From the IMG/VR virus record IMGVR_UViG_3300045988_054358: DNA of 42,174 nucleotides. One strand, 5' to 3'. Position 1 is the stretch's first letter. Every line of letters starts with the position of its first letter. The notes under the pieces were generated by a model, which was not told where the DNA came from, searched no databases, and saw only the letters and a list, made by a program, of their open reading frames with translations. Position numbers and translations under genes: made by a program. The DNA is from a virus. Positions 1 through 42,174 of this stretch are shown piece after piece.

Positions 1-142
1 TAGGCATTACGGTAGCTTCTTCAATGAGTCTCTTAATGGGAATAGCTCGTGAAGAACTAGCATTACGGCTAAACATTCGGTGAGTCATAAACTCACTGTG
101 GATAAACCTAGGATAAATAAGCTCCAAGGTAGTAACCGTAAT
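1..142. repeat. Exact duplicate of 42033..42174 (window-end overlap of a circular or circularly permuted assembly)
   Basis: The first 142 nt are identical to the last 142 nt. The duplicated segment is the 5' coding part of the thyX-like gene, so it is not a genuine T7-type terminal repeat. Confidence 0.9.
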
Positions 143-246: not shown

Positions 247-822
247 TTAATGCTCCACTTTACCAACAGAAATCCCCGTGTCTCCCTGATACTTCCCATT
301 ATAGACAGCACTAGGCTCTTCTCCAGTAAAGAAAAGAATCTGACAAATAGGCATTCCGGGATAAAGAGCAATATTACGAGTAGTCTTATTGAACAACTCA
401 AGGGTAATATTACCAGTCCAGTTAGGCTCAATCACCACAGAGGCTACATCAAGCCCAAGTCTAGAGAGAGTACTCTTGGGTTTCGTAATGCCAACAACAT
501 TAGTAGGCATCTTAATGAGTTCCAAGGTACTAATCAGGCATCGCCTCAAAGGCTTCAACAGGAATACCCCATCCTCAGGAATCGTAAAAGTACTATAAAG
601 AGAACTCAAGTCTTCCATTGTGGTGTTAATCGTGGGAACATCACGCTTGTTCTTCTCAGACAGGATCTTAACAGTATTATCCATTCTGAGATCATAACCA
701 AAACTTGATTCCCCAAAAGACATACCAAAGGCATGACTCTTAGTTACATGGGGTGTAATAATACCTGCTTTTGAAATCTGATAATCAGCCAATACGGTCA
801 TTAGTTTTTTCTCCTTTGTCAT
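247..822 (-). CDS. dcd: dCTP deaminase (dUTPase-superfamily Dcd-like)
   Basis: 191 aa. The C-terminal half (SRLGLDV...IEPNWTGNITLELFN...LYPGMPICQILF) matches the Dcd signature SxARxGL..IDPGWxGxIxLE..PGMxIxQLxF. Confidence 0.75.
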   Translation of the reverse strand: MTKEKKLMTVLADYQISKAGIITPHVTKSHAFGMSFGESSFGYDLRMDNTVKILSEKNKRDVPTINTTMEDLSSLYSTFTIPEDGVFLLKPLRRCLISTLELIKMPTNVVGITKPKSTLSRLGLDVASVVIEPNWTGNITLELFNKTTRNIALYPGMPICQILFFTGEEPSAVYNGKYQGDTGISVGKVEH

Positions 823-970: not shown

Positions 971-1008
971 ATAAATAACACCAATATTAAATAAAATAAA
1001 TGGTACCA

Positions 1009-1085
1009 CTGGTGAGACTCGAACTCACATAATACAATTTAGAAGATTGTTTCTTTGTCCAATTAAGATACAGTGGTGTGACTTA
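1009..1085 (-). tRNA. tRNA-Arg (anticodon UCU, reads AGA), 77 nt with encoded CCA
   Basis: Folded by hand from the minus strand: acceptor ACCACUG/CAGUGGU, D-stem UCUU/AAGA with GG in the loop, anticodon stem ACAAU/AUUGU with loop CUUCUAA (U33, UCU at 34-36, A37), 5-nt variable loop, T-arm GUGAG-UUCGAGU-CUCAC, discriminator A, then CCA. Confidence 0.8.
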
Positions 1086-1111: not shown

Positions 1112-1543
1112 CTATTTCTTCTCCTCCTCCTTAATAAGAGTATTCAAAGAATCAACCCTTAAGGATTCTCTTCGATATCCTTCAAGAGCCTGTTTAAGTA
1201 ATTCTGCACCTTCAAGGTTAAACTCTCTACATCTTTCGAGTGAGACTCTTGAAGGGTCTGAGGAATTGTTTGCTTTAAGTCGTTTGTTGTCTTGGGATAA
1301 CTGCCACAACCTACCAAGAGACTTGTCAAGATCAGACCTGAGGCTATTCCCTTCAGTGAGCAATAAGTTAATTGTTGCATCTTTTTTACTAGCATTTTCT
1401 TCAGCCTGCTTCTTAAGGTTGACAATGACAGTCTCTTGGTATTCTTTAACTGCCTTATCATAGCCACTACTATGACCCCACAAATAGGCTCCCAAGACAA
1501 TTAAAGAACTAAGGCCCAACATGATAGCCTTAGGGTTTAACAT
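1112..1543 (-). CDS. i-spanin (Rz-like): N-terminal TM segment plus periplasmic coiled coil
   Basis: Start moved to the ATG (MLNPKAIMLGLSSLIVLGAYLW...) that follows a GGAG SD, directly downstream of the phage promoter at 1573..1597. One TM segment, then a charged coiled-coil region. Sits right after the lysozyme gene. Confidence 0.55.
   Translation of the reverse strand: MLNPKAIMLGLSSLIVLGAYLWGHSSGYDKAVKEYQETVIVNLKKQAEENASKKDATINLLLTEGNSLRSDLDKSLGRLWQLSQDNKRLKANNSSDPSRVSLERCREFNLEGAELLKQALEGYRRESLRVDSLNTLIKEEEKK
1159..1380 (-). CDS. o-spanin (Rz1-like lipoprotein) embedded in another frame inside the Rz gene
   Basis: ORF 1159..1500 in an alternative frame lies wholly within Rz. It has a signal peptide with lipobox LLVGC (GIASGLILTSLLVGCGS). 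This is the classic embedded Rz/Rz1 arrangement. Confidence 0.45.
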   Translation of the reverse strand: MQQLTYCSLKGIASGLILTSLLVGCGSYPKTTNDLKQTIPQTLQESHSKDVESLTLKVQNYLNRLLKDIEENP

Positions 1544-1572
1544 ACTTTTCTCCAATAGTCGAAGACTAGTGT

Positions 1573-1597
1573 CTTCTCCCGAAATGTGTAACCTAAT
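1573..1597 (-). promoter_or_regulatory. phage-RNAP promoter (minus-sense ATTAGGTTACACATTTCGGGAGAAG), followed by 5' hairpin GAAGAC-ACUA-GUCUUC
   Basis: One of five copies of a conserved 23-25 bp motif that resembles SP6/K11-type promoters. The initially transcribed sequence forms a hairpin, then GGAG SD, then the Rz ATG. Confidence 0.6.
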
Positions 1598-2069
1598 GGG
1601 TATTCTGAGCGTACCAAGGGATGACATCAAAACAAGGACAAGCCTTATTGACACCAAAGTCCCTATGGCCTAACACAGTGGGTTTCTCAGAGGCATAGAC
1701 ATCCTTCTGTAACCACTCAAGAAGTTTCAAAAGGCTATCCTTCTGAGCCTTCGTAAAGTTATCCATAGGAACACCCTTAAGGTTAGTTCCTCCAATAAGG
1801 CAGATGCCCACAGACTCCTCATTGTGACCCTTAACGTGGGCGCCAATGGTATCTAAAGGTCTACCTTCCTCAATAGTTCCATCGGTGCGGATCACAAAAT
1901 GATACCCAATGCAAATCCATCCTTTCTGTCTGTGCATTCTGTCGATAGTCTTCCAGTCAAAATCAGGACTGTTAACTGTAGCACTACAATGAACTACCAA
2001 GTATTTAGTTCTAGGTCTCTTCTTAAGAGACACAAAGAGCTTATTAGATTTAATCGTAGGTTTTTCCAT
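1593..2069 (-). CDS. N-acetylmuramoyl-L-alanine amidase (T7 gp3.5 lysozyme-like)
   Basis: 158 aa. VVHCSAT...GYHFVI..DGT..GR.....GAHVKG.N..S.G.CL.GG....F...Q...L...CP.FD aligns along its length with T7 lysozyme. Confidence 0.9.
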   Translation of the reverse strand: MEKPTIKSNKLFVSLKKRPRTKYLVVHCSATVNSPDFDWKTIDRMHRQKGWICIGYHFVIRTDGTIEEGRPLDTIGAHVKGHNEESVGICLIGGTNLKGVPMDNFTKAQKDSLLKLLEWLQKDVYASEKPTVLGHRDFGVNKACPCFDVIPWYAQNTH

Positions 2070-2094
2070 ATATACAACACTTACTTATTATTTC

Positions 2095-2974: not shown

Positions 2975-3598
2975 TTAGTAATCTCCATTGTTAGCATCTT
3001 CAGAACTACCATAGGATTCCTCAAAGGGAGGATCCTCGTCTGCATCCTTGGCTTCGTAACCTTCTTCCTCATCGAAGCCATAAGACTCAGCATTACCCGC
3101 AGAGTATTCTACCAGTTCAATAACCTGAACTGCAACAAGGCGAAGACTCAGGCCAACACCCTTATTGGTAGCATTGAAATAAGGGGCTACAGTAAAGGAC
3201 ACCCGACACACACTACCATTACCCAACTTGATGGATTCAGTAATGGGCTTACCCTTAGCATCAAACAAGGGAATCTTAACCTCAGAGGTAGTACCGTCCT
3301 TCCGCTTGATAATCTTGTTCTGTTTGAACTTAAAGACAAGATGCTTGCCGTCTTCAGATTCTTCAAAGAAAGGAATCTTATTGAGCTTCTTATTCTTTTC
3401 CTTGGAGAGAGTCTCATGTTCCTTATCAAGGATTACTGTAAGCTTCTCCACCAGCTCCGTAGTCTTAGGATCATCCTGAAAGCACTCAAGCTGAATATGA
3501 TACACACCTTCTTTAACAAAAGCAGTATCAGCAGTAATAACCCACGGATACATAGCGATACCCTTAGGGGAAACATATCGAACAATTTTCGTAGCCAT
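2975..3598 (-). CDS. single-stranded DNA-binding protein (T7 gp2.5-like)
   Basis: 207 aa. It has an acidic C-terminal tail ending in an aromatic residue (EDANNGDY). Overall similarity to gp2.5 (FKFK, KIPLFD region) and its position after RNAP. Confidence 0.8.
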   Translation of the reverse strand: MATKIVRYVSPKGIAMYPWVITADTAFVKEGVYHIQLECFQDDPKTTELVEKLTVILDKEHETLSKEKNKKLNKIPFFEESEDGKHLVFKFKQNKIIKRKDGTTSEVKIPLFDAKGKPITESIKLGNGSVCRVSFTVAPYFNATNKGVGLSLRLVAVQVIELVEYSAGNAESYGFDEEEGYEAKDADEDPPFEESYGSSEDANNGDY

Positions 3599-3618
3599 TT
3601 TAATTTAACTCCTAGAAA

Positions 3619-4164
3619 TTAATACAAATCTTTTTTATTGATACAAAGTTTATGAGTAATAAATGGATTGTCTTCATCCTTCACCCGAAGGACAATATAG
3701 TCATCTCCATCGTTTAACTGTCTGTTCCATTCCTTAATCAATTCAACTGCCCTTTCTGCACCACCTTCAAGATCAGTATTATAGAAGATAAAGTCATTAA
3801 AAGCAAGAAGGGCGTCCTCCTTAGCATTCGGATAGAACTTCTTCAGAGTATTCAGAGACAACTCATTAGTTACTGGAAGGGGCTTCTTAAGAACATACTC
3901 AGGCTTCAGAAGACAAGTAACAACAAGCCCCCCATTTTTACTGATGATACTAAAGAAATCCAAAGGTTTAGAAGAATGCTCATTCAGAACCTTAAGAAGT
4001 TCATATTCATGATCCAGTCGGTTCAGAAATGAGGTAAAAGTAGGATAATCTCTGCACCCTGCAAAGAAGTCTGCTACATCATCGGCGTTAACAAAGACTG
4101 TAGCAAAAGCCCCCGCATAGGTTGTATAGGAACGAGGAATGGCATCACTGAGTTTTTTGGTCAT
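3619..4164 (-). CDS. hypothetical protein
   Basis: 181 aa from MTKKL. The GGAG SD lies inside the alternative upstream MENIM codons. It is the first gene after the promoter at 4203..4227. Confidence 0.4.
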   Translation of the reverse strand: MTKKLSDAIPRSYTTYAGAFATVFVNADDVADFFAGCRDYPTFTSFLNRLDHEYELLKVLNEHSSKPLDFFSIISKNGGLVVTCLLKPEYVLKKPLPVTNELSLNTLKKFYPNAKEDALLAFNDFIFYNTDLEGGAERAVELIKEWNRQLNDGDDYIVLRVKDEDNPFITHKLCINKKDLY

Positions 4165-4231: not shown

Positions 4232-6838
4232 TCATGCGAAAGCATATGCAGACTCCTTAACAAGATCAAGATTTAAAGTTCCCTTAGAGGGTACCTCAGG
4301 TAACTCCTTAGCTGACTCATCAGGTAACATATTTAAGACATGGTCATGAAGGTCCTGAAGGACATCATTATTTTTGTAGGTATCCACAAAGACCTCTCGG
4401 ACAGTCTTAAAGAGTACTCCCGCATTCCCCGCATGGGTACCATAAGAGTCATGGATCATTGCAAACGAATGAATACCCTTAGACACACAAGCATTCACAG
4501 TAAGCATCAGATGAGAGGCATCCATAGAGTGAACAAAGTTAGGTGCAATACCCTGTCTCTGTTTTCTCTTGTCTATCGTACCCGGCACATCTTTCCCAAT
4601 GAGGGGAGCAAAGATTTTAGTAGTCTTCTCTCTAGTATCTCCCGTGGTATCCTCACAGTTAAACATAACAGAAGTGCCCATGGCTAACTTAACTCGCTTC
4701 ATCTCTGTCTTGTGGTATTCTTGTTTTACAGGGAATCCAGCAGGGGTAACCCAATAGGTAGGCAAAGCATTACCCATGGTATCAGTCTGAGATGCCAACA
4801 ACCCTGAGGCATCCTGAAGCCATGTCATAGCCTCTACAGCCTTAACTACAACCTTCTGAACAGAATCCCAAATGAGTTTAGCCATATAGGATGACGCTTG
4901 TTTAGGCTTAGAGAATGCCAAAGGGTTATCCAATACAGCAGGCATGACAGTATCCTCATAGACCTGCTCAGAGAACCCATATTGTTTAGACCCATAGCAA
5001 AGAGTCATGACAGAACGCTTAGTTACCTTACGGGTAACCCCATGTTTCAACCATTCGGTAGCTAAAGACTGCGTACCCTTCTTAAGATACTCTGCCTTAC
5101 TCTTAGGGTCTACTACATAGGCATCATCTGTGCCATTCTTAGCATCCTCCTTAAGAATCTCATTAACCTTCTCAGCGACAATACCATAGATATCATGTAC
5201 CTTAGTATCAGGCACAAGGTTTACAGCAGTAGCACCTACCTCATCTCTGAGCATAGCCGAGTAATGCTGAAGTCCTGAACATGATCCATCGAAGGCTACA
5301 GCAATATGGGACTTATATGTAGTACCTTGCTTGAGATATTCAGCCCATTCAAAACAGAAACTCAAGAACTCCCAAGGTTCATCAGCAGTAGTCCAGTCGA
5401 GATTACTCAAAGGATCCTCAGCAATTCTAGAGATCATCTCAGGATTTTCATAGACCCAAAACAGTCTCTCCTCTAAGGGTTTCTTATCAAGACCCCAACA
5501 GTTAGCACCATGGAAGGCTAGCCATTTAGCCCCATCCTCACCAAGTTCAACCCCTTCAGCAAACTCTAAGAGTCCCTTAGTGAAGTCATTACCCTGAGGA
5601 CTCAAAAGGGTCATAGGATAGACACGACCCCTAAAGTCAATACTGTGAGGGAAATAAATCTTATCTTCTTGGAGGTAGGTTTTGGCTTGCTCCATAACCA
5701 TATCAACCAACAGACGCTTACCCTTTCGAGTGTTATCAAGCTGATAATAACGCATCATGTCCTTTCGCCATTTCTTTTGGACTTCAGGATTAGTATCAGC
5801 ATCGACAGGCCTAATGGGCTTCTCAGGTGCCTCCTTAGTGGGCATATCAAGGGCATCAGGTGTATTAGTCCATCCTGAGATTTCTTCAGCTACTCTATAG
5901 ACTCTCTTATTAATCCTCCATGCTGTGGACTGGATAGCATTAACTGCGCCATAGACCGCAGGCATATCAACATCCATGTAGAAATCTAATGAATGCTTAT
6001 TAACCTTGATGAATGAGTCATCCTTCTGTAACTTTAAGAGATACCCGCCATCGACCGGAGAAGTCCAGTCGAGGGGTTTAATTAACATAGGTCTCTTAAA
6101 ATACATGAAAGAAGCCATTTCTTCATCTGTCTTTTCAAGATACTCCATAATATAAGAATCTACATGCAACATATATGTAAACCCTTTCTTATTGGATACC
6201 TTTACTAATCTAGCTAATCCAGTAGCCTCAATAAATAACTCAACAAGTTTTAATCCTAGACGGACTAAATCAGAATCTTGTAGTTTTTCCTCAGGGGCTA
6301 AAAGATTATCTTCAATAAGTTTATTTGCTACTGCACTATAAAATGCTTTCTTATATGTTTCCCCTATGCGTTTATCAGCGGATACCTGAGTATATTTAGG
6401 GGCAACATCTAATATTTTCTTTACACGGATTTCTTCTCTTACCTTTTTGCCTATACCTTTAGAGATACTGACAAGAGTTAACCCCGTCATATTCTTAAAA
6501 GATGCGGCCAAAATAGCCCTAAGAGTAATTAAAGACAACTCATCATCAGATAACCCTTCCATAAAGACAACAGTAGAGTTTTTCCTACCGGTTTTCCCTG
6601 AGATAGCCTCCTTTCTAAATTCATGTACCTTTTTAACCATAGGGGCCATGGCTTCACTCATAAGCCGATAACCAGCCCCCATAATATTACCCTCAGATTT
6701 AGCCTTATTAAGGTTAGACATAAATCTATTAAATGCAATAGTCTTAGATTCTAACTCTAAGGCTATCTCCCGGTCTACTATGGTTTTATTCCCATAGTAA
6801 TCGTAAAGGTCATCTAAGGATTTCTTAAACTGTTCCAT
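4232..6838 (-). CDS. DNA-directed RNA polymerase, single-subunit T7-type
   Basis: 868 aa. Motifs DFRGR, PQGND, HGANC.G.DK, FDGSCSG.QH.SA.LRDEVG, TRKV.KRSVMTL.YGS, IHDS.GT and a C-terminal FAFA, as in T7 RNAP. Confidence 0.97.
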   Translation of the reverse strand: MEQFKKSLDDLYDYYGNKTIVDREIALELESKTIAFNRFMSNLNKAKSEGNIMGAGYRLMSEAMAPMVKKVHEFRKEAISGKTGRKNSTVVFMEGLSDDELSLITLRAILAASFKNMTGLTLVSISKGIGKKVREEIRVKKILDVAPKYTQVSADKRIGETYKKAFYSAVANKLIEDNLLAPEEKLQDSDLVRLGLKLVELFIEATGLARLVKVSNKKGFTYMLHVDSYIMEYLEKTDEEMASFMYFKRPMLIKPLDWTSPVDGGYLLKLQKDDSFIKVNKHSLDFYMDVDMPAVYGAVNAIQSTAWRINKRVYRVAEEISGWTNTPDALDMPTKEAPEKPIRPVDADTNPEVQKKWRKDMMRYYQLDNTRKGKRLLVDMVMEQAKTYLQEDKIYFPHSIDFRGRVYPMTLLSPQGNDFTKGLLEFAEGVELGEDGAKWLAFHGANCWGLDKKPLEERLFWVYENPEMISRIAEDPLSNLDWTTADEPWEFLSFCFEWAEYLKQGTTYKSHIAVAFDGSCSGLQHYSAMLRDEVGATAVNLVPDTKVHDIYGIVAEKVNEILKEDAKNGTDDAYVVDPKSKAEYLKKGTQSLATEWLKHGVTRKVTKRSVMTLCYGSKQYGFSEQVYEDTVMPAVLDNPLAFSKPKQASSYMAKLIWDSVQKVVVKAVEAMTWLQDASGLLASQTDTMGNALPTYWVTPAGFPVKQEYHKTEMKRVKLAMGTSVMFNCEDTTGDTREKTTKIFAPLIGKDVPGTIDKRKQRQGIAPNFVHSMDASHLMLTVNACVSKGIHSFAMIHDSYGTHAGNAGVLFKTVREVFVDTYKNNDVLQDLHDHVLNMLPDESAKELPEVPSKGTLNLDLVKESAYAFA

Positions 6839-9962: not shown

Positions 9963-10469
9963 ATAGGTAATCCCATTGACTAACCTAAAGAGACAGAGGC
10001 CCATCAAGATTATACTACAGTTTCCAAATGATAACCATAAGGGTTATCCCTAATTGAAACCTCTTGACTTTTCTTTAGTTTCTCTTTAGAATTACCGAGG
10101 GCTCCGAGGCACCCCACCGGGGGACACTCAGGGGGGAGCTCTACTTAATTGTCTACATAGATTTTTACTCAATTTTTCTAAAGACACCCCTAAAGATATC
10201 CCCATTAGGGAATACCATTAGATAGACCCCACAAGGAACCTCAATAACCCATCAATATCACCACTAGCAAGATAGATAATCAACAGCACTATGGTAACTA
10301 TTAGTTTAACAGTAGAGACCACTCTAGGGGTTCTTAAGAGGTCTCTTATAACCTTAATCATCCTCTTCATAGCTAGCAACAATAAAAAAATCCCCTAGGG
10401 AACCCATTCGGTAATCTCATTACCATTCGGGAACACTAGGGGAGCAATCTAGGAGTTATCTATTAGATA

Positions 10470-10556
10470 CCTTAAAGGGGCATTAGGATACACCTTAAAG
10501 GGACATTAAGTAATACCTTAAAGGGGCTTTAAGTATACCCTTAAAGGGAGATACCG
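10470..10556. repeat. four copies of ACC(T)TAAAGGG(G) at about 21-bp spacing (terminal-repeat-flanking array?)
   Basis: Sequence ataccttaaagggg...acaccttaaaggga...ataccttaaagggg...atacccttaaaggga. Confidence 0.6.
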
Positions 10557-10586
10557 GGATATGCTTATATATATACCTGTCGGGGG

Positions 10587-10610
10587 CCCTTCCGAAATAT
10601 GTAACCTAAT
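10587..10610 (-). promoter_or_regulatory. variant phage-RNAP promoter (ATTAGGTTACATATTTCGGAAGGG), phiOR-like position after the terminase gene
   Basis: Differs from the consensus at two positions. Located at the right genome end. Confidence 0.4.
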
Positions 10611-10675: not shown

Positions 10676-11971
10676 TTATCTTCTTATATGATATCCTGTC
10701 TTAGGTCTACTGTAGTAGATTGTACCCTTAGAGACACTACTAGTAGAGGTATCCCGAGTATCTTTAATGTTGTCTCCAATATCATTAGTGACAAACCCAA
10801 AGAAGCTCTCAAGATGCTCTTCAAGCCACTGCTCAGTAACCTCATTGATGCCTTCATCAGCATCTATACCCATGAAGTCAATAAGATAGGCTACACCCTG
10901 AGCTAGTGCATCAAGTCTATCATCATGCTTTAAGGAACCTTTGTCTCTTGTAATTCTAGTTAATTGATAGAAACAGGAGTACTTATAGTCACTTTCAGGA
11001 ACACTTGTAGCATCCTTTTGGATACACTCAGGGGACACTACCATTTTATGATTAGTAATGACAGGCTCAAGTGTATCAATAATGCGTTGTTCCTTCTGTC
11101 CCTTTGATCTCACTTCAGTACACCCACAGCCCCCATAGACAGCCTTTAAGACAGGCTCAAAGAGCTTAGTGTACATCCCGTCACCAAAGTTACCTTCAAT
11201 GACTACCTCATTTACTTTCCATTTCTTAGCAACCCTAGCTAATTTATCAAGAGTGACATCAGAATACCCACTAGTGAAGCCCCCTGTTTCCATCACATAG
11301 ATGAACCCATTGAGCCAATACAGTACTGCATATCCTGTTTCATCTGAGCCTCTACCTGATGGGTCAATAGACATCATTTTGTACCCATAAGGTTGCATCT
11401 GATCAGAAGCAGAGAAGAAATAAAAGTAGCCATCACCCTTAAGACCCAAGTTGGTAACCTGATTAGGATCACACCTCTTAGTTACGTCAGGAAGCCACGA
11501 GAGCTTCATTGGAGCCTCAGAGGTATCAAAGGTACCCACAAGCAAATCTCGAAGCTTTAAGGGGTATTTATTGGCATCATTGAGGGTAGTATCGAGCATG
11601 AACTGAAGCATGAAACCAGCTCTACCATAAGAGAGTTCACGCTTCTGTAAGTCCATATCATCGAATCTTAAGGGATCGGTAGGTTTCCCTGCAATCTTAG
11701 GATCATTATCGTACTTATCAGCAATAAACTTAGCTAAACGAGTACCATAAGTTCTCCTATGTTTTTCATCATAAGGGAATCTCGCAGGGTAAATGATACA
11801 GGTATACCCTCTTTCTTGTAGCTCATTATAAAGAGACATCTCATTCTGAGGAGTACCTAGGTAAATAATCTGAGATTTATCCCCCGGTTTAATCACAGAG
11901 TCAAACTCCTTCACGAGTTCTGAGAGTTTATCTCTAAGTACCTGAGTAAAGGAGTTCTTCGGAACTTCCAC
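10676..11971 (-). CDS. terminase large subunit, exon 2 (C-terminal 431 aa)
   Basis: Begins VEVPKNS... and aligns with T7 gp19 VEIPSNS...VIYLGTPQTEM..., continuing to the C-terminus (GYAVLY.LNG.IY.ME.GG...DGMF.K, HDDRLDALA). Confidence 0.9.
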   Translation of the reverse strand: MEVPKNSFTQVLRDKLSELVKEFDSVIKPGDKSQIIYLGTPQNEMSLYNELQERGYTCIIYPARFPYDEKHRRTYGTRLAKFIADKYDNDPKIAGKPTDPLRFDDMDLQKRELSYGRAGFMLQFMLDTTLNDANKYPLKLRDLLVGTFDTSEAPMKLSWLPDVTKRCDPNQVTNLGLKGDGYFYFFSASDQMQPYGYKMMSIDPSGRGSDETGYAVLYWLNGFIYVMETGGFTSGYSDVTLDKLARVAKKWKVNEVVIEGNFGDGMYTKLFEPVLKAVYGGCGCTEVRSKGQKEQRIIDTLEPVITNHKMVVSPECIQKDATSVPESDYKYSCFYQLTRITRDKGSLKHDDRLDALAQGVAYLIDFMGIDADEGINEVTEQWLEEHLESFFGFVTNDIGDNIKDTRDTSTSSVSKGTIYYSRPKTGYHIRR

Positions 11972-12754
11972 CTTTATGTTAGGGTAAGGTCGTTAGTCTT
12001 ACCCCATCGTCTTTTTAGTGAATCTACTGCATTTTCAGTAGCAGATACAAACTTACAGTGATCCCTAGAGTAGATCCCACAGTTGCCCTTCTTGATGTCC
12101 TTATCAAGATGCATACTAGAATCTTTCTCCCAGTCTTCATAACCTTCAACCTCATGAATTGTATTCAAAAAGGTAGTAAAGTTATGCCACCTAGGATCTA
12201 CCACACAGCCTACATAGCTAGTCTTGTAGTTACCATAGGCTCTCTTAAGCATATTAGCCCACAGGTCATAGATTCTACGGATGATGCTATTAGAGCCTCT
12301 ATCAGGTATTCTAATAGGAGACCCCATAAAACCCACACCATAGACTGTAGGTTTCATAAAGTCCTCAAACTTGCCTGCCTTAATGTTACACGTCTGAACA
12401 TCTATGACTGTACCAGTCTCGACAAACTGAATGACAGCCCTAGGATGTTTGGTTTTACCATTAGGAAGTTTTTGTTTCTTAGTCCTAGACAGAATCTTAA
12501 TAAGACCTTTAGGAGTTTCGTAAGTTTTGTTAATTTCGTACATAGTTATGTTCCTTATAATTGACGATGCTTCATATCTCTATGAAGACCAGACTATATC
12601 TTGTGCTCACTTAGAGCACCCCCATTTTTCGAGTCACTTGGCTCTACATAATAGTCGTTACACCTGCTATAAAGCTCGGCTCGGTATTGTCTTTCCTAGT
12701 TAGGACTGAGTTTCACCGAATTTAAGGGGTTTAGAGACGACATGGTTAAAGTTT
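11972..12754 (-). mobile_element. group I intron (783 nt) in the terminase large subunit gene
   Basis: Removing it restores ...[11 protein letters not shown]|VEVPKNS... (T7: ADDVEIPSNS). The 5' exon ends GAU, the intron ends ...CAUAAAG. Core elements: P AAUUCGGUGAAAC (12713-12725), Q GACAAUACCGAGC (12677-12690), R GUAACGACUAU (12651-12661), S CAAGAUAUAGUCU (12581-12593). Confidence 0.8.
11974..12543 (-). CDS. intron-encoded ORF, 189 aa, family not recognised (candidate homing endonuclease)
   Basis: Sits in the 3' half of the terminase intron. Its stop TAA is 2 nt before the 3' splice site. No clear LAGLIDADG, GIY-YIG or HNH signature. Confidence 0.5.
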   Translation of the reverse strand: MYEINKTYETPKGLIKILSRTKKQKLPNGKTKHPRAVIQFVETGTVIDVQTCNIKAGKFEDFMKPTVYGVGFMGSPIRIPDRGSNSIIRRIYDLWANMLKRAYGNYKTSYVGCVVDPRWHNFTTFLNTIHEVEGYEDWEKDSSMHLDKDIKKGNCGIYSRDHCKFVSATENAVDSLKRRWGKTNDLTLT

Positions 12755-13228
12755 ATCGTCTGCCACAATGAGATCAGCACGGGAACCCGTAAGTTGCCCT
12801 TCGATGCCCACAGATTTCAAGCTAGGGGAGTGATCGGGTCTAGCAGGGCCTACATCAAAGAGATTCTGTGTATCTCTCTGTCCTTCTCTAGCCTTAAGGT
12901 GTTCCAAGAAGGGAAGAGTATTCATGATTTTCTTAATAAAGACAGCATTAGCATCAGCTCTTTCTTTATTAGCAGAGACAATCATGATCTTAATCTGTGG
13001 GTCTCTCCATAGTCTCCACACAGAGTAAGCACAAGTAATAAAACTCTTGGCTACCCCTCGGAACCCTTCAAGGATAAATCTGTTGTTAGGGAGATTCTGA
13101 AGTGTCTTAGCGATATCCAACTGGACAGCAGTAGGTCTAGGAAGCCCAATGTACTTCCATACAAGACCTACAAACAGAGGAAAATTATCATAGAAATCTT
13201 TAAGAGATTCTTGCGAATTCAATTTCAT
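12755..13228 (-). CDS. terminase large subunit, exon 1 (N-terminal 158 aa)
   Basis: [47 protein letters not shown]...[11 protein letters not shown] matches the T7 gp19 N-terminal ATPase region. The unspliced reading frame stops 2 codons later (KL*). Confidence 0.9.
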
Positions 13229-13454
13229 CTCCTAAGTTTTCTTTAACATTCTCCATGATTTTCTTTAAGGTATCTCCTGCCTCATCTCCAGCCTTAGGGA
13301 CACAATCAATGCCATTTCTCTCTAACTCCTTAATGACAGCATTATAGAGCTGAGGTGTTCTCTTTTCTGGATTTCTTAAGTCTTCGAGCATATCGTTTAG
13401 CATAGTTTTGTGTATATGCCCAAGAATATCTTCTAGTTCTTTTCTTTCTGTCAT
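13200..13454 (-). CDS. terminase small subunit (T7 gp18-like)
   Basis: 84 aa. [22 protein letters not shown] matches gp18 ADLSDHERRSPQLYNAIINKL. Confidence 0.75.
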
Positions 13455-13665
13455 TTGTTTCCTTTGTGATTACAATCTTTGGAAAGAAAGTCTTCCTGAT
13501 TAACACTACAACAGCAATTACTGTATAGATGATAGTAACTACATAAATCCATTCGTGTAGTGTTAAACCAAGAAGAGTAAAAGAGGATACAGCTACAGGT
13601 GGGACGGCATAAGTACACACTGAGGGTACATCAACTGATTCCACTATTTTCTCTATCCTCTCCAT
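13342..13665 (-). CDS. holin-like membrane protein (two hydrophobic segments, basic C-terminal tail)
   Basis: 107 aa. The 3' 113 nt overlap the terminase small gene in another frame, so the exact extent is uncertain. Confidence 0.35.
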   Translation of the reverse strand: MERIEKIVESVDVPSVCTYAVPPVAVSSFTLLGLTLHEWIYVVTIIYTVIAVVVLIRKTFFPKIVITKETNDRKKRTRRYSWAYTQNYAKRYARRLKKSRKENTSAL

Positions 13666-13667
13666 AG

Positions 13668-13922
13668 TTAGACGCTAAGGAAAGCCTTAATGTTCTCTTC
13701 AGTGAAGTCCTTATACATCTGCTTCTTGTTCCATCTCAGAGTAGGCAACCCATGAAGAGACAAGTCCTTTAAGGCTTCCTCTCGAACGCCCTCCAAATGG
13801 ACATCCACAAGGATAACCCCCTGTTCATTACAGACACGCTCAACAATAGGGGCAACCTCTTTACAGGTCTTACAATTGGGCATCATATAGAAAAAAGCTG
13901 TAGGTTTCATATTATCAGCCAT
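13668..13922 (-). CDS. glutaredoxin/NrdH-like redoxin (CxxC)
   Basis: From MADNMKPTAFFYMMPNCKTCKE. Thioredoxin-fold pattern. Immediately follows NrdD. Confidence 0.55.
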   Translation of the reverse strand: MADNMKPTAFFYMMPNCKTCKEVAPIVERVCNEQGVILVDVHLEGVREEALKDLSLHGLPTLRWNKKQMYKDFTEENIKAFLSV

Positions 13923-13941
13923 AGTAGTATTCCTTATTATA

Positions 13942-16071
13942 TTACATTGATTTTCTTTCTTTAATCTCAACCATCTTGCCATCATTCATTCGAGTATGGC
14001 CCTTAATGTTACTGTAGCCCAAATAACCACAGACACGAGAGACAACAGAGATATTACTAGAGCCACACACAGGGCACTTAAAAAGTACGTTAGTGCTATG
14101 ATTATGGCAATCCTCACAGTATGCGGCATCAAAGTTAACACCCTGATAAAATCCCTGAGACATTCCCTTAAGGATAACCGCCTCAAGTGCCTTGAGATTC
14201 TTTGGGTTAGTAATCTTTACATACTGAATGTGACCACCATTACATTTGTGGAAAAATTCGTACTCTTCATCTTGTTTTTCAAAAGGCGTGACGTCTTCGG
14301 TAACTTTAAGATGAAAGGAATTAGTGAAGTATTCTCCAAATTGAGTATCACCAGTGAAATCTCTATATTGTTTTGCTTGGGTTGCACACAAAGACTCCGC
14401 AGGAGTACCATATAAAGCATAAAGATAATGATCTTCTTTTTTGTAATCCTGAATGAGTTTGTTAATGAAGTCCAAGCATTGATTAGCAAATTCTTTAGTC
14501 TCATGAAGTCCTTTACCATTAGTCCATAACACAGTAGCCTCATGAAGGGCAGTAATACCAAAAGAGGCTGTCATATAGTTTACAAGATCACCAACTTCAT
14601 CATCAGGCTTTAAGAATCCCTTATAGAATCCCCCTTGAGTGAATGCCATAGGATTAGTAGAAGCCCTAGTGTGTCTGATGATGTCATAGCGTTTCTTAAG
14701 GAACTCTCTGATTGCTTCCATTCGATCCTTAAGGACATCCCAGAAGTGATCTCTCCAAGATTCTCCAAAGTCTCTCTTACAGACTGCCATAATGACAGGA
14801 AGGTTAAGAGAAACTGCTCCAATATTGCATCTACCAATAGTGATATACTTGCCTGTATCAGGATCAGCCCAAGGAGTGAGATACGCCCGGCATCCCATCG
14901 GTGACGTAATAGCCCCGTGGTTAATAAAGGTATCTGCTACAACATTATGCTCAGGATCACCCCTCAAAGAGAGCCAATCGGGATACATACACTTAGAGGA
15001 ACACTCGATAGCCTTAGTGTAAATCTGTTTGGAATACAAATCGTTATTAACTTGTTCTTCATCAAACAGGTAGACCAGCTTAGGAAACACGACCTGTTTT
15101 CCCCCATGCCCCTTCATTCGAGTGTCAAGCATGATGGTATCAATAAGACAAAGGATATTACGATCTTCAGCACTCAGGTGTTCCCAATCGAATTGCCCAA
15201 AAGTAATCGTAGTGAAAGCAAAGTCACCACGAGAGCACGGAATGGTATTTACCTTAAGTTCCATACTCTGAAAACCCTGAGTGAGTTCTCTAGTTAGGGT
15301 TTCCCACACAAAGTTCTCACACTGAGAGTCATCACTGAAGTATTTCTTATAGAGTTCTCTAGCAGTTTTCATAGTCTTCTTGCAGTAAGGCAAAAGAACC
15401 TTATCGAGTTCTGCAAGGGTGAACCCACCGAACTGCTGAGCTGTGGCAATAAGAGTAACATCACCGATAACCTGAAGGGCACTAAGGACACTATTAGGTT
15501 CTGTATAGGTCGTATTGGACATCTCAAAGCCACCCTTCAAGACAGTCCCAATATCAAAAAGACAACAATTGACAGACCCTAAGATCATATCTCGGAGATC
15601 ATGAATATAAATGTCACCTCTCTTGGTGAGTGCCTTTTCTTCTGTGCTCAGATAGAATTGCTTATAGAGAGCCTTAGTGAGATACCCACGGATGAGACTA
15701 CCTTTGGTAGAACTAAGAGAGCTATCAAAGTTAGCATTCTCTTTGTCTCCCAAGAAGAGAACATTATCAGCTTCTTTCTTAAGGTTCTCAAATTCCTTCA
15801 CGTAGGTGTTCTTATAGTCCCTGTATTCCTGATAGGCTTTAGAAATCTCAGGGAAGTTCTCAAAGGCTAAGTAATGGATTACCAAAGAGTGAAGCTCAGA
15901 GACACTTACTGAATCCCTATCTTTGATCTCAGAGAGAACTCCGAGAATAACTCTTTCAATGGAGAAATCAGTAATAGGACACTTGCACCTTTCAGCGGCC
16001 TTATGGATAGCCACTTTGATCTTATTAGTATCCCAAGGTTCCTGAGTGTTGTCTTTCTTTGTAACGTTCAT
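13942..16071 (-). CDS. nrdD: anaerobic ribonucleoside-triphosphate reductase (class III RNR, NrdD)
   Basis: 709 aa. N-terminal ATP-cone, C-terminal Zn-ribbon CEDCHNHS...CPVCGS, and the glycyl-radical motif RVCGYLG. Confidence 0.9.
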   Translation of the reverse strand: MNVTKKDNTQEPWDTNKIKVAIHKAAERCKCPITDFSIERVILGVLSEIKDRDSVSVSELHSLVIHYLAFENFPEISKAYQEYRDYKNTYVKEFENLKKEADNVLFLGDKENANFDSSLSSTKGSLIRGYLTKALYKQFYLSTEEKALTKRGDIYIHDLRDMILGSVNCCLFDIGTVLKGGFEMSNTTYTEPNSVLSALQVIGDVTLIATAQQFGGFTLAELDKVLLPYCKKTMKTARELYKKYFSDDSQCENFVWETLTRELTQGFQSMELKVNTIPCSRGDFAFTTITFGQFDWEHLSAEDRNILCLIDTIMLDTRMKGHGGKQVVFPKLVYLFDEEQVNNDLYSKQIYTKAIECSSKCMYPDWLSLRGDPEHNVVADTFINHGAITSPMGCRAYLTPWADPDTGKYITIGRCNIGAVSLNLPVIMAVCKRDFGESWRDHFWDVLKDRMEAIREFLKKRYDIIRHTRASTNPMAFTQGGFYKGFLKPDDEVGDLVNYMTASFGITALHEATVLWTNGKGLHETKEFANQCLDFINKLIQDYKKEDHYLYALYGTPAESLCATQAKQYRDFTGDTQFGEYFTNSFHLKVTEDVTPFEKQDEEYEFFHKCNGGHIQYVKITNPKNLKALEAVILKGMSQGFYQGVNFDAAYCEDCHNHSTNVLFKCPVCGSSNISVVSRVCGYLGYSNIKGHTRMNDGKMVEIKERKSM

Positions 16072-16097: not shown

Positions 16098-16241
16098 TTA
16101 CTTATTAGCCTTCTCAATGCTGAGCAGATAGTAGATAGCCTTATAGGCATCCTTATACTTTCTAATATCCTCAGCACTGTGATAAGATTCTTTATTAAGC
16201 TTTTCTACAGCTTCAAGAAGCTTATGCTTAGACATAGCCAT
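16098..16241 (-). CDS. small hypothetical protein (47 aa, no TM segment)
   Basis: ORF 16098..16352 trimmed to ATGGCTATG, which follows an AAGGAA SD. Confidence 0.3.
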   Translation of the reverse strand: MAMSKHKLLEAVEKLNKESYHSAEDIRKYKDAYKAIYYLLSIEKANK

Positions 16242-16587
16242 CACTTTCCTTACGGAGGAACTTAGGCACAGCAGGCCAACGAACATTTCTAGGGAAACCT
16301 TCCTGAACAGGGAGGTCTCTAAGAGCCTGTCTGTAAACCTTAAGTTCCTCAAGGTTCTGAGGATTCGCGGGGTAGTCAGGCATGAGATAGTAGTCAGTCT
16401 CAGTAATGAGTCTGTCTCTCTTAGCCCTTACTATCATAGCAATCTCCGAATCATCAGGTTCGGGATTCTGAATAATTTGATACCCCCCGTCTATCTGTTG
16501 AATACTACAGTCACCCCTGGTGTTACACCAAATAGCCGCTTCGGGGGGGTAGATATTGGGAAACTTTTGATTAATATAGAAGTCCAT
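16228..16587 (-). CDS. tail fiber assembly protein (Tfa-like chaperone)
   Basis: 119 aa. The C-terminal KVYRQALRDLPVQEGFPRNVRWPAVP matches the conserved Tfa C-terminal motif (YR..L..V....P.IEWPAVP). Confidence 0.7.
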   Translation of the reverse strand: MDFYINQKFPNIYPPEAAIWCNTRGDCSIQQIDGGYQIIQNPEPDDSEIAMIVRAKRDRLITETDYYLMPDYPANPQNLEELKVYRQALRDLPVQEGFPRNVRWPAVPKFLRKESDGYV

Positions 16588-16598
16588 TTATGATCCTT

Positions 16599-17444
16599 TT
16601 AATAACCACAGGCATACCACCCACGTGTGAGCGTATCCCTGTAATCATCTTGGTTATAGCCGTGTGGTTCAAACGATGTAGTTGATATAGAATTAACGAA
16701 CACAGGGTCAATTACCCCGACACACGCCACACAGGGAATACTAGTGAAGGGCCATCCAAAGGATCTAGTACCCCTTCCTTGCGCCGTATCCCCCTGCTCA
16801 ATAAACCCATCAGACCACTTGCGGTACCACATAGTGCCTTTATTTGCAACTGTGGTTACATAAGCATTGGGGGTAGGCCCAGACGATCCAGCAGGCCCCT
16901 GTGGACCACGAGGACCGGTATCTCCCCTGTCACCCTTATCACCCTTAGGAATACCAAATGTAAACACAGGAGCCGCATCAGTTCCTGATTTAGTTACTGT
17001 AGCGGCACTTCCTGAATCAAGAGTTTTAGCGGCTACTGAGATAGTCGGGGGTGTCACCAAGAACCCCGAATCATTAGAAAGCTGAGATGTCTTAGTAGGA
17101 ATCTTATTATTGATGGTATTCAGAGTAGTCTGTAAGTTAGTCACATCAGCTACAGCATGAGTATGAGCCTTGTTGGCTTTACCTGCAAGCCCATCTGTAA
17201 GGGCCTTAGTAGTAGCATAGTCCCCTTTAGGTTGCTTACCATCAAGGGTAGTCTGAAGGTTAGTCACATTAGAGATACTGTGTGTATGACTTTCAGATGC
17301 CATAGGGTAGTTAGTACCAGCAGTACCACTCATGCCTACCCACTTCTTCTTTGTCTTATCCCAGACTAACTGACCCTCAACACCAGCATAAGCATTGATC
17401 TGTGCAGTAGTACCAGTTAATTGTTTTCTTTGTTTAATTGCCAT
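16599..17444 (-). CDS. second tail-fiber or receptor-binding protein with a collagen-like segment
   Basis: 281 aa. Two copies of the HTH..ADVTNLQTTL.GKQ.KGDYATTKALTDGLAGKAN module also present in the main fiber. GDKGDRGDTGPRGPQGPAG collagen-like run. Immediately followed by Tfa. Confidence 0.65.
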   Translation of the reverse strand: MAIKQRKQLTGTTAQINAYAGVEGQLVWDKTKKKWVGMSGTAGTNYPMASESHTHSISNVTNLQTTLDGKQPKGDYATTKALTDGLAGKANKAHTHAVADVTNLQTTLNTINNKIPTKTSQLSNDSGFLVTPPTISVAAKTLDSGSAATVTKSGTDAAPVFTFGIPKGDKGDRGDTGPRGPQGPAGSSGPTPNAYVTTVANKGTMWYRKWSDGFIEQGDTAQGRGTRSFGWPFTSIPCVACVGVIDPVFVNSISTTSFEPHGYNQDDYRDTLTRGWYACGY

Positions 17445-17452
17445 AATTCACT

Positions 17453-19867
17453 TTAAGGGGTACCTAAGTCCCCGTAATCTACAAATCCTTCAAAAGTAGC
17501 AACACTAAGTTTACCATTAAGTGCATCCTGAAGACCAGTCACATTAGCTACCGTATGGGTATGTGATGTGTTAGCCTTACCAGCAAGCCCATCTGTAAGA
17601 GCTGTAGTTGTCGCATAGCTCCCCTTGGCTTGCTTACCATCAAGAGCAGTCTGAAGACCCGTAACGTTAGCTATAGTGTGCGTATGGGATGCATTAGCTT
17701 TACCTGCAAGACCATCTGTAAGAGCCTTAGAGGTAGCATAATCGCCCTTAGCCTGCTTGCCATCAAGAGCAGTCTGAAGACCAGTCACATCAGCTACAGC
17801 ATGGGTATGAGCCTTGTTGGCTTTACCTTCAAGACCAGTACTAAGAGCCGTAGCTGTAGCATAGATACTCAGATCAGGTTTATTCTTAATGAAATCCTTC
17901 TGAGTACTATCGGACTGATTCCAGTCAGACTGAAGCTGACCTGTAGATGCCTGATCAGCATAACTTCTAGCTAAATCTGCCTGTTTCTTAGCTTCAGCTT
18001 CAGAAGCCTTAGCTTTATCCGCAGAACTACTAGCAGATTCCTTATGGGTAGCCGCAGTGTCCTCAGAGAGCTTAGCCGCCTTAGCTGAGTTAGCACTAGC
18101 AGTAGCCTGTGTGGTAGCTGTAGTGGCACTACTAGCAGAACTCTTTGCGCTAGCATCTGCCTGACTAGCTGAGGTACTAGCAGAGGTTGCACTAGCTTCA
18201 GCTTCAGAAGCCTTAGTAGTAGCAATGGTAGCCTGAGCAGTAGCCTTAGTTACCTCAGCCTTAGCTAAGTTAACCTGCTTAGTACCTTCAGCCTGTACGG
18301 ACTGCACAGAGGTAGCTTCAGCATCAGTCACCTTCTTTACAGAGCTAGTACCAGCATCAGTTACTCTAGTTACCTGTTTGGTACCCTCAGCAGTAACCAA
18401 GGCAGTCTGTTGCTTAGCAATATTGGCTTGCTCAGTAGCCTTAGTTACTTCAGCCTTAGCTAAGTTAACCTGTTTAGTACCCTCATCAGTCACTTGCTTG
18501 ACAGCTGAGGCAACAGCCTGATTAACTGCCTGACCCCCATCAGTCTTAGCCTTGTTAGCATAATACTTAGCAGAATACTCAGTATCATCAACAGTGCCAT
18601 CCATCTTGTTAGCCCAGTCCTTTGCAAGACTAGCACTACCTGATGCACTCACCTTAGATGCCTGAGCACTAGCTTCAGCACTACTCGCATTAGTAGCACT
18701 TGTTTCAGCACTCTTAGATGCCTTCTCAGCTCTTGTGGTAAGGCTAGTGACAGTGTTAACTGACTCAATAACTGTCTCAAAGTCAGGAGCTAAGCCTGCA
18801 ACAGTACGGACTGACTCAATGTTGTCTGCAACAACCTTGATGTTACCACCAGTGATTGTCGGTGAGGGAGCACTCGGATTCCCTAAGTCCCCATAGTCAT
18901 CATAGAGGGTATCTGAAAGAGAACCTGTAAGGTCGTTACCTACAATGTTAATGTTGCTGATACTATTTGAGTCAGTAACAACACTATCAATGTTATCAGC
19001 TACGACCTTAATCTCAGGAGCAATAGGGACAATGACATTAGCTACTGAGGTAACCGCCTCTTCAGATTTCTTAGCGTTAACCTCAGATTCCTTAGCGTTC
19101 TTAGCACTAAGGACAGCCTCATCAGCTCTTGCTACAGTGATTGCAGTGTTATCTTTGGTTTCCTTATGGAGAACCCGATCCTCTGCAATGATCTCTCTAG
19201 CTTCCTTAATGATAGCTCTATTCTCAGTCCTTACTTCATCAGCATGAGCAGAGGCACTTACAGCATTCTCTTCAGAAGTCTTAGCCTTTGTCTCAGACAG
19301 CTTAGCATTCTCTTCGGACTTCTTAGAGTTAGTCTCAGCTTCAACAGCTCTGTCTCTAGCTTTCTCTGCGGCAATCTTTGAATGAAGGGCACCTAAAGCA
19401 TCAGCCTTATAGATGCCATAAGTCATAGCATCGTTATCAGCTACAGGGGTACCAACATTGATAATTCTCTTGTTTCTAGCATCCCAGTTATTCTCTCTGT
19501 CGACAACAAGAGCATCATTGATGACATCACGTGCTTCTTCAGCAATATGAAAAGCCTGAACTTGAGCAGTATCCAAGTCCTTAGAGTACAACACAGAGCC
19601 ATCTCTAAAAGATGCCACTCTTTCTTTAACTGAGGTATATCTTCGGATAGTGATTGTCTGTGCTGTAGTAGGGACAATCTTTCTCAGTCTGATTGTAGTA
19701 GCATCCACAAAGTAATAGTCCGCAGAAGTATCTGTAGTGCTACCACCTTTGAGTTCTGTAACGGAATCTAAAAGAACCTTCACAAAACTCTTTCTAAGGT
19801 AATCGAAGGGTACTGCAAAATCAGTAGTACTTCCATCACCCCTATAAATAATAAGTGTGTTTGCCAT
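17453..19867 (-). CDS. tail fiber protein (T7 gp17-like N-terminus, long Ala/Ser/Lys-rich repetitive shaft)
   Basis: 804 aa. N-terminal MANTLIIYRGDGSTTDFAVPFDYLRKSFVKV...HIAEEARD is equivalent to the gp17 tail-attachment domain. The C-terminus carries three copies of the 32-aa module. Confidence 0.85.
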   Translation of the reverse strand: MANTLIIYRGDGSTTDFAVPFDYLRKSFVKVLLDSVTELKGGSTTDTSADYYFVDATTIRLRKIVPTTAQTITIRRYTSVKERVASFRDGSVLYSKDLDTAQVQAFHIAEEARDVINDALVVDRENNWDARNKRIINVGTPVADNDAMTYGIYKADALGALHSKIAAEKARDRAVEAETNSKKSEENAKLSETKAKTSEENAVSASAHADEVRTENRAIIKEAREIIAEDRVLHKETKDNTAITVARADEAVLSAKNAKESEVNAKKSEEAVTSVANVIVPIAPEIKVVADNIDSVVTDSNSISNINIVGNDLTGSLSDTLYDDYGDLGNPSAPSPTITGGNIKVVADNIESVRTVAGLAPDFETVIESVNTVTSLTTRAEKASKSAETSATNASSAEASAQASKVSASGSASLAKDWANKMDGTVDDTEYSAKYYANKAKTDGGQAVNQAVASAVKQVTDEGTKQVNLAKAEVTKATEQANIAKQQTALVTAEGTKQVTRVTDAGTSSVKKVTDAEATSVQSVQAEGTKQVNLAKAEVTKATAQATIATTKASEAEASATSASTSASQADASAKSSASSATTATTQATASANSAKAAKLSEDTAATHKESASSSADKAKASEAEAKKQADLARSYADQASTGQLQSDWNQSDSTQKDFIKNKPDLSIYATATALSTGLEGKANKAHTHAVADVTGLQTALDGKQAKGDYATSKALTDGLAGKANASHTHTIANVTGLQTALDGKQAKGSYATTTALTDGLAGKANTSHTHTVANVTGLQDALNGKLSVATFEGFVDYGDLGTP

Positions 19868-31756: not shown

Positions 31757-31802
31757 ATTAGTTTTATTTTCCTTTTTTAGATTTACTTTAGTTAGTTTTT
31801 AT

Positions 31803-32627: not shown

Positions 32628-32663
32628 AATTAATCTCCAATAGCTTGCTATTCACAAGCCTAG

Positions 32664-42160: not shown

Positions 42161-42174
42161 GGTAGTAACCGTAA

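Follow-up and report, generated by a model that had tools for sequence, protein, structure and literature searches.

The viral sequence IMGVR_UViG_3300045988_054358 of the IMG/VR database (42,174 nt; the window hereafter means this whole stretch) is the genome of a T7-like phage with an intact nrdD gene, which codes for a class III (anaerobic) ribonucleoside-triphosphate reductase, and with no encoded NrdG, the radical-SAM activase. Comparison with related phages, referred to here by L numbers, indicates that the absence of nrdG is a recent deletion, polymorphic among near-identical phages, and not a designed arrangement. The reading that we favor, with a probability of about 0.7, is that NrdD is a working enzyme of the formate-using type, activated by the NrdG of the host after nrdG was lost by deletion from a cargo cassette in a T7-like gut phage.

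The nrdD gene and the functional elements of its product are located as follows.

13942..16071, minus strand: nrdD, class III (anaerobic) ribonucleoside-triphosphate reductase, 709 aa, intact
15811..16071, minus strand: ATP-cone, NrdD residues 1-87 (Pfam PF03477, 54.4 bits against a cut-off of 25.8)
14890..14904, minus strand: finger-loop motif S390-P-M-G-C394, with the thiyl-radical Cys394 and Met392, aligned to T4 NrdD
14065..14118, minus strand: zinc ribbon C652/C655/C666/C669, aligned to the CxxC...CxxC of T4, its four columns being invariant in the NrdD alignment
14017..14037, minus strand: glycyl-radical motif R679-V-C-G682-Y-L-G685, with Gly682 equivalent to T4 Gly580 (Pfam Gly_radical, 23.4 bits against a cut-off of 22.2)

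A ribosome-binding site, AGGAG, lies 5 nt before the ATG of nrdD. The protein matches phrog_487, scores 366.1 bits with Pfam NRDD (cut-off 26.2) and passes the cut-off of the NCBIfam NrdD equivalog TIGR02487 (444.1 bits against 326.35). Against the NrdD of known structure from phage T4 it gives E 3e-78 and 267 bits, with all catalytic elements aligned: Cys394, within SPMGCRAY, corresponds to T4 Cys290, the NCCL stretch (N168-C169-C170) matches the region of T4 Asn78/Cys79, and GRCNIG takes the place of the T4 loop GRNNLG. An earlier reading of the window, made from the letters alone (the sequence-only reading), had described a full-length NrdD with ATP-cone, zinc ribbon and the motif RVCGYLG. 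Both the profiles and the T4 alignment agree with this description, and the glycyl-radical region shows no degeneration. By these comparisons, the protein is classified as the catalytic subunit of a class III ribonucleotide reductase (RNR) of the Escherichia coli/T4 type, with every catalytic motif intact.

The NrdD proteins of T4, E. coli, and Lactococcus lactis belong to the formate-using NrdD1/NrdDc group, and the one of Thermotoga maritima has been grouped with the thioredoxin-using enzyme of Neisseria bacilliformis (NrdD2/NrdDh) (PMC4493059, PMC4390871). A third active-site cysteine and a glutamate define NrdD2 (PMC4493059). The window NrdD matches the T. maritima protein at only E 1e-6, against the 3e-78 obtained with T4, and its finger loop SPMGCR is identical to that of T4. 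Overall similarity to the T4 enzyme makes the formate type the likely reading. Because NrdD is far nearer to the T4 than to the T. maritima enzyme, the small redoxin encoded directly downstream of it (see below) is not expected to be its reductant.

The absence of nrdG concerns a complete genome. Positions 1..141 are identical to 42034..42174, and a common metagenome assembler has 141 as its largest k-mer. This exact 141-nt terminal overlap indicates that the window is a complete, circularly assembled genome of about 42,033 bp, with nothing hidden beyond its ends. In all six frames of the window, no real open reading frame (ORF) has the CxxxCxxC motif. The sole intact occurrence on the coding strand (29892) stands at the beginning of a stop-to-stop segment of 71 codons, ahead of the first start codon there, and does not resemble NrdG. 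Searching the window with phage NrdG by tblastn produced only noise (best E 0.07). A hidden Markov model (HMM) of four phage NrdGs detected no NrdG in the six-frame translation of the circularized genome (best E 2.2); in leave-one-out positive controls, such models recovered the NrdG of L008 at 4.5e-63 and that of L007 at 2.8e-49. No other RNR gene is present among the ORFs scanned, the unscanned ones all being shorter than 90 aa. Motif, tblastn, and profile searches thus concur with the sequence-only reading, which had seen no NrdG or other radical-SAM activase ORF in the window.

In the relatives that have it, nrdG occupies a slot bounded by the small gene (16098..16241) and the holin gene. 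This slot is variable in the clade of gut T7-like phages, where five states were found; the spacer that takes its place in the window is given last.

Full cassette, L008 (MT835695, human feces): fiber, Tfa, small genes, nrdD, nrdG (with CxxxCxxC), mazG-like pyrophosphohydrolase gene, holin, terS, terL
Full cassette and redoxin-like gene, L017: nrdD, nrdG, mazG-like gene, redoxin-like gene (A-P-I-C, first Cys lost), holin
nrdD only, window, L001-L004, L010, L011, L015, and L102-L109: nrdD, then directly the CxxC redoxin gene
No cassette, L019: three small genes, redoxin-like gene (S-Q-L-S, both Cys replaced by Ser), holin
Decay, L007 (MT835557, 42.9 kb): damaged nrdD and nrdG at 31349..33701
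13923..13941, minus strand: 19-nt spacer between nrdD and the redoxin gene of the window, at the place of nrdG and the mazG-like gene in relatives

The most informative relative is L101, a contig of 41,958 bp whose NrdD is 98% identical to that of the window and whose nrdG is intact (TIGR02491, 148 bits against a cut-off of 126.1; 86% identity with the NrdG of L008). After nrdG, this contig has a truncated mazG-like remnant, with the CxxC redoxin gene next in order. Two nrdG-less genomes, L010 and L105, have TGATTTTTAACGAAAATCTATGTGA after the stop codon of nrdD, and L101 has this string after its truncated mazG-like gene. The post-nrdD sequence of these two genomes, ATGTGATTTTTAACGAAAATCTATGTGA, is a 22-nt scar common to the nrdG-bearing L101, and it shows a microhomology of the ATGTGA type. 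Since the scar is shared with L101, the nrdG-less state is derived by deletion. The spacers of the window and L102 are shorter than the scar of L010 and L105. The adjacency of nrdD and the redoxin gene in the window is a by-product of the deletion of nrdG. Recombination is also evident, because the nrdG genes of L101 and L008 are far closer to each other than their nrdD genes are. In L007, nrdD lacks about 70 internal residues and, at its 3' end, continues in a different frame into nrdG, which has lost its first ~20 codons along with the start codon; this record is marked 'UNVERIFIED' and an assembly error is possible. The sequence-only reading had correctly placed NrdD and the redoxin between the tail-fiber/Tfa genes and the lysis/terminase genes, as the gene order on the minus strand confirms. 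It had also regarded this as an atypical place for nucleotide-metabolism cargo, which does not hold for this clade, where the site is a recurrent hot spot of indels and cargo.

The closest cellular NrdD proteins are those of Sutterellaceae. A scan in which each bacterial species was represented by one genome yielded 80 loci, overwhelmingly of this family (Sutterella, Duodenibacillus, Mesosutterella, and 'Aphodousia'), with the bias that a pattern-based scan sees just the proteins sharing two peptide patterns. Over their full length, the Sutterellaceae proteins are 57-64% identical to the window NrdD, which is closer than the best NrdD of a cultured phage (the FelixO1-like Moogle, 52-53%). In a neighbor-joining tree, the NrdDs of phages form their own clade, which is sister to the Sutterellaceae clade and not nested inside it. 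In nearly all Sutterellaceae genomes nrdG is directly 3' of nrdD, and its product scores 200-277 bits against the phage NrdG profile. The NrdG of the sister phages is 51-57% identical to that of Sutterellaceae of low guanine-plus-cytosine (GC) content, and several Sutterellaceae nrdD-nrdG loci have 40-46% GC, near the about 41% of the phage. The C-terminal zinc-ribbon/Gly-loop region of NrdD has been conjectured to contact the activase (PMC4493059); in the window protein this region is 75-77% identical to that of Sutterellaceae NrdD, the same as to the NrdD of nrdG-carrying phages. A Sutterellaceae-type host NrdG is a plausible activator of the window NrdD. The phage likely has an anaerobic gut host, and this host is probably a low-GC member of the Sutterellaceae. 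The replication in an anoxic host put forward by the sequence-only reading remains the best reading in view of these nearest cellular pairs and of the relatives, all of which come from gut or fecal metagenomes. A literature search on Sutterella together with Autographiviridae returned nothing relevant. Two contigs of metagenome-assembled genomes (MAGs) labeled Bacilli/Bacillota, L042 and L093 (GC ~0.30), also code for NrdDs that are 59-62% identical to that of the window. No nrdG was detected within the fetched flank of either, and they may be phage contigs binned into MAGs.

If the deletion had left NrdD without activation, the gene could be an orphan, that is, a non-functional remnant yet to decay. 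The pattern of selection makes this unlikely. All of the 12 full-length nrdD alleles (12/12) have 709 intact codons, and their pairwise ratios of nonsynonymous to synonymous substitution rates (dN/dS, NG86) range from 0.027 to 0.079, against about 1 under neutrality. The nrdG-less clade formed by L010 and L105-L109 is of particular value in this respect, because its members share the scar and their divergence should post-date the deletion. They differ by 14-102 nt per pair, have a dN/dS of 0.044-0.075 in nrdD, and show no stop codon or frameshift. The adjacency of nrdD and redoxin gene also persists as far as L015, whose NrdD is 86% identical to that of the window (dS 0.90, dN/dS 0.11). Hence, in nrdG-less lineages nrdD is under strong purifying selection, which is the pattern of a functional gene and not of a decaying one.

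Several points nevertheless weigh against a host-activated NrdD. The presence of nrdG is polymorphic among near-identical genomes, with L101 nested among nrdG-less ones, so that loss can be recent, and some losses may be very recent. The purifying selection that was measured may in part be older than the loss. Completeness was shown for the window, and the relatives without nrdG beside nrdD are partial loci. L007, a related T7-like phage, shows that the nrdD-nrdG cassette can decay. The NrdD of T4 is reported to need its own NrdG. Glycyl-radical activases have been described as enzyme-specific (PMC13450708). This specificity, the polymorphism, and the decay in L007 are what speaks for an orphaned gene. 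As for the host, its assignment rests on NrdD/NrdG similarity, obtained by a pattern-biased search, and on GC content; the tail-fiber and Tfa DNA has no match in E. coli genomes, and a Tfa pattern scan of 185,579 bacterial genomes revealed no relative.

Activation could also occur in trans, by the NrdG of a co-infecting sibling or by another glycyl-radical activase of the host, such as PflA. Siblings with and without nrdG do come from related assemblies of one accession series (ERZ10349xx/ERZ10350xx), and the NrdG of L101 is weakly similar to PFL-type activases. However, routine co-infection would be unstable and would not hold dN/dS near 0.06 across several nrdG-less lineages, no precedent was found for PflA activating an NrdD, and a close host NrdG is a simpler source. 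Such activation in trans is therefore improbable. Dependence on a host NrdG, as proposed in the sequence-only reading, remains the best explanation for an nrdD that is intact, under purifying selection without nrdG, and whose nearest cellular NrdD/NrdG pairs are in Sutterellaceae.

Under activation by host NrdG, the events may be ordered as follows. The ancestral cargo would have been an nrdD-nrdG(-mazG-like) cassette, as in the sister phages. A deletion would have removed nrdG and the mazG-like gene, bringing nrdD beside the resident thioredoxin-like gene. The host NrdG, a radical-SAM [4Fe-4S] protein reduced by host flavodoxin, would most likely install the radical at Gly682, from which it would pass to Cys394, and NTPs would be reduced with formate as the reductant. 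NrdD could thereby raise the supply of dNTPs for phage DNA synthesis in an anoxic host, alongside the flavin-dependent thymidylate synthase ThyX and a dCTP-deaminase/dUTPase-like enzyme, both encoded in the window.

The gene directly downstream of nrdD codes for the redoxin.

13668..13922, minus strand: short thioredoxin-fold protein, 84 aa, with C17-K-T-C20 at 13863..13874 and the cis-Pro-type P60 at 13743..13745

The ORF was listed as 13668..13985, and its conserved start is the ATG at 13922, beyond the nrdD stop codon: all called homologs begin at the equivalent position, and AAGGA is found upstream. The active site is NCKTC, and not the canonical WCGPC. The cis-Pro-type motif HGLPT is invariant, with P60 conserved across the 18 aligned sequences. 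A first AlphaFold model, made from a 6-sequence alignment, was too weak to use (predicted local distance difference test, pLDDT, of 63). The model from the 18-sequence alignment (pLDDT 82.6) has the order strand-helix-strand-helix-strand-strand-helix, with C17-K-T-C20 directly before and at the start of the helix 18-34. Its top matches in PDB, as identified by Foldseek, are all thioredoxins or domains of protein disulfide isomerase (PDI), with TM of 0.70-0.79 and probability 1.0. Among sequence profiles, phrog_22 ('thioredoxin domain') matches at 3e-5, and Pfam Thioredoxin scores 21.4 bits, just below the cut-off of 23.5. The protein lacks the N-terminal strand-helix unit of classical thioredoxins, having 84 aa against about 105. 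The small CxxC redoxin of the sequence-only reading is thus modeled as a short protein of thioredoxin fold with a CxxC and a cis-Pro loop.

Few homologs of the redoxin were found. A word-indexed search identified six close ones, and an exhaustive HMM search of 1.84 billion representatives had two matches below 1e-10, the weaker ones being short WCxPC thioredoxins and PDI-like proteins. The search of IMG/VR returned just the same close relatives, and tblastn against 50,697 phage records had no match. Every member of the family with available context is just upstream of a T7-like phage holin gene. In L019 the family is present with no nrdD and has both cysteines replaced; in L017 it accompanies nrdG and has lost the first cysteine; in L101 it accompanies nrdG and has an intact CxxC. 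Its dN/dS is 0.27-0.64, indicating weaker constraint than on nrdD. By this distribution, the redoxin gene is a resident pre-holin gene of the phage clade, and the evidence found indicates no partnership with NrdD.

The idea that NrdD and the redoxin form a functional pair is accordingly not borne out, although it has points in its favor. As a module, the redoxin would act either as the reductant, in the manner of NrdD2 enzymes, or as a keeper of the reduced state of the C-terminal cysteines of NrdD for a foreign activase. The two genes are adjacent and probably co-transcribed, with no terminator-like site in the spacer between them. The redoxin has, in its model, a true thioredoxin fold with CxxC, and all the close CxxC-bearing homologs found adjoin nrdD. 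Thioredoxin has also been reported to activate the class III RNR of E. coli (Padovani 2001, as cited in PMC4390871). On the other side, the family exists without nrdD in L019, with both cysteines changed to serine, and the coexistence of nrdG with the altered site of L017 and with the CxxC form of L101 means that the redoxin does not compensate for the loss of nrdG. Furthermore, it was the deletion that brought the two genes together in the window, the weaker constraint noted above does not suggest a partner of nrdD, and NrdD resembles the formate-using T4 enzyme much more than the NrdD2/NrdDh type of T. maritima (PMC4493059). Such a module is very unlikely. There is a similarly slender chance that the redoxin is a dedicated helper of NrdD, keeping its zinc-ribbon/C-terminal cysteines reduced or otherwise conditioning it for the host NrdG. 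If true, this would make phage nrdG dispensable and would explain the repeated loss of nrdG with nrdD and the CxxC redoxin kept.

Three other propositions on the redoxin were rejected or disfavored. It is not a remnant of, or a replacement for, NrdG, having a thioredoxin fold and coexisting with nrdG in L017 and L101. The presence of CxxC does not track the absence of nrdG, since L101 has both CxxC and nrdG. The third is a role as processivity factor of the DNA polymerase, as host thioredoxin has for T7 gp5. The thioredoxin-binding loop of T7 gp5 is in the thumb of the polymerase, at residues about 262-338. Like T7, the window has a T7-type DNA polymerase, and it encodes a thioredoxin-fold protein; the difference is that the polymerase (37382..39298, minus strand) has no counterpart of T7 gp5 residues 270-317, about 48 residues of this loop, and ~10 residues instead. 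The missing loop makes the role of processivity factor unlikely.

The minus strand carries every gene of the window, and the order around the slot is fiber, fiber tip, Tfa, small gene, nrdD, redoxin, holin, terS, terL. The features of this region and others of the genome are given below.

17453..19867, minus strand: T7-type fiber
16599..17444, minus strand: fiber tip
16228..16587, minus strand: Tfa, tail-fiber assembly chaperone (Pfam Phage_tail_APC, 6e-23)
16098..16241, minus strand: small conserved gene, upstream border of the cargo slot (47 aa in the window, 57 aa in L008)
13342..13665, minus strand: T7-family holin, which bounds the slot downstream (Pfam Phage_holin_2_2, 27.1 bits, cut-off 25.4)
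13200..13454, minus strand: terS, small terminase subunit (Pfam DNA_Packaging_2, 1.6e-15)
4232..6838, minus strand: single-subunit RNA polymerase (RNA_pol, 372 bits)
247..822: dCTP-deaminase/dUTPase-like gene
1001..1077, minus strand: tRNA-Arg with anticodon TCT (ARAGORN; Rfam 64 bits)

The phage is of the T7-like (Autographiviridae) type, with a single-subunit RNA polymerase and with replication and virion genes in T7 order. Its replication set includes a DNA polymerase matching T7 gp5 at E 1e-183, a T7-type helicase-primase, a 5'-3' exonuclease, endonuclease I, and a T7-type single-stranded DNA-binding protein; an amidase is also encoded. The virion genes code for portal, scaffold, gp10A-like capsid, tail tube, nozzle, gp14, and a fiber with the T7 N-terminal domain, and packaging and lysis involve both terminase subunits and the T7-family holin. 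The gene of ThyX runs over the circular junction. By DNA polymerase, the nearest cultured relatives are T7-like phages of Vibrio cholerae, at about 51% identity, and the sequences closest of all are human fecal scaffolds recorded as 'Bacteriophage sp.', which are unannotated.

The gaps between the small gene and nrdD (26 nt) and between nrdD and the redoxin gene (19 nt) are short, and ribosome-binding sites are good. From the fiber tip gene to the holin gene, no convincing terminator was found outside coding sequence. A promoter-like 15-24-mer, GGTTACA[C/T]ATTTCGG, occurs in five copies (at 10586..10609, 1579, 4208, 6987, and 36349), all in the early and middle region and none near nrdD, for which no promoter of its own was found. 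A sigma-70 scan gave matches at chance level. Late co-transcription of nrdD with the fiber and lysis genes is thus likely. Just downstream of terL, at 10467..10552, there are three tandem 23-nt repeats with the core ACCTTAAAGGG, adjoining the promoter-like copy at 10586..10609. These repeats and the promoter-like copy probably mark the physical genome end and the early-promoter region.

The window and its relatives also contain several mobile insertions. In the window, terL (exons 12746..13228 and 10676..11971) is split after '...IVADD' by an insertion of ~793 nt at 11963..12755 on the minus strand. The insertion includes an HNH homing-endonuclease ORF (11974..12543; phrog_2081, 1e-39) and a match to group I introns at 12570..12785 (48.6 bits, E 3.7e-11, for an Rfam cut-off of 50). 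It is present in L010, L011, and L102 and absent in L002, L004, L101, L103, and L105-L109. The terL of L011 has, besides this HNH-bearing insertion, a second one at 3186..3680 with an ORF resembling a GIY-YIG endonuclease ('...KIYVGMHSTDNLNDGYLGSG...'). The portal gene of the window is similarly split at 33045..33852 on the minus strand, into 33853..34974 and 32664..33044, by an insertion with an HNH ORF (33235..33786; Pfam HNH_3, 1e-9) and a weak group I intron match at 33142..33310 that is well below cut-off (26 bits, E 2e-4). A LAGLIDADG ORF (29952..30713, minus strand; Pfam LAGLIDADG_1, 1e-9), between the genes of the capsid and of tail tubular protein A, is the third homing endonuclease of this 42-kb genome. 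The nrdD allele of the window has no intron. In relatives, nrdD is interrupted by a mobile insertion at the finger-loop codons SP|MGC, which is the thiyl-radical site (about 14896/14897 in the window). In the 188-kb phage L005, the nrdD insertion is a group I intron above the Rfam cut-off (11129..11427; 56.8 bits), and in L003 it is a stretch of 772 nt (1318..2089) with a 171-aa HNH ORF and a 32-bit intron match.

It is common for phages to encode class III RNRs, and phages with nrdD alone have already been described (PMC3653736). Among known systems, T4 NrdD/NrdG has the same catalytic architecture, with all key residues matching, and T4 also resembles the relatives of the window phage in that its nrdD is interrupted by a group I intron with a homing endonuclease (PMC2988022). 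T4 differs in encoding its own NrdG, and its NrdD, of 605 aa, lacks the ATP-cone that the window protein has and aligns from residue 92 of the latter; the overall similarity, 267 bits, is moderate. The phages of Dwivedi et al. (2013; PMC3653736) resemble the window in having nrdD without nrdG. However, these are large phages that also carry the class Ia nrdAB, whereas nrdD is the sole RNR gene of a 42-kb T7-like genome in the window, where the missing nrdG is traceable to a deletion and is still present in siblings. The podoviruses of that 2013 survey carried class II RNR only (PMC3653736), and no paper was found that describes an Autographiviridae-type phage with nrdD. The FelixO1-like (Ounavirinae) phages such as Citrobacter phage Moogle, with nrdA-nrdB-grx-nrdD-nrdG, have the closest NrdD among cultured phages, with the same C-terminal tail motif and with MazG-like and redoxin genes nearby; yet they are myoviruses of ~88 kb, with the full class Ia and III set including nrdG, in a nucleotide-metabolism region and not in the late region. 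Lastly, the Sutterellaceae operon has the order nrdD then nrdG of the sister phages, but it is cellular and always includes nrdG, the phage NrdDs forming a sister clade.

In other respects nrdD is a routine auxiliary metabolic gene. Its presence in the window adds small podophages of the T7-like type, from the anaerobic gut, to the carriers of class III RNR, and Sutterellaceae provide a host lead for an uncultured clade of gut phages. Phages that are near-identical yet differ in the presence of nrdG, the scar of a deletion, and the purifying selection that persists on nrdD make a natural experiment. Taken together, they argue for the ability of a glycyl-radical enzyme of phage origin to depend on the activase of its host.

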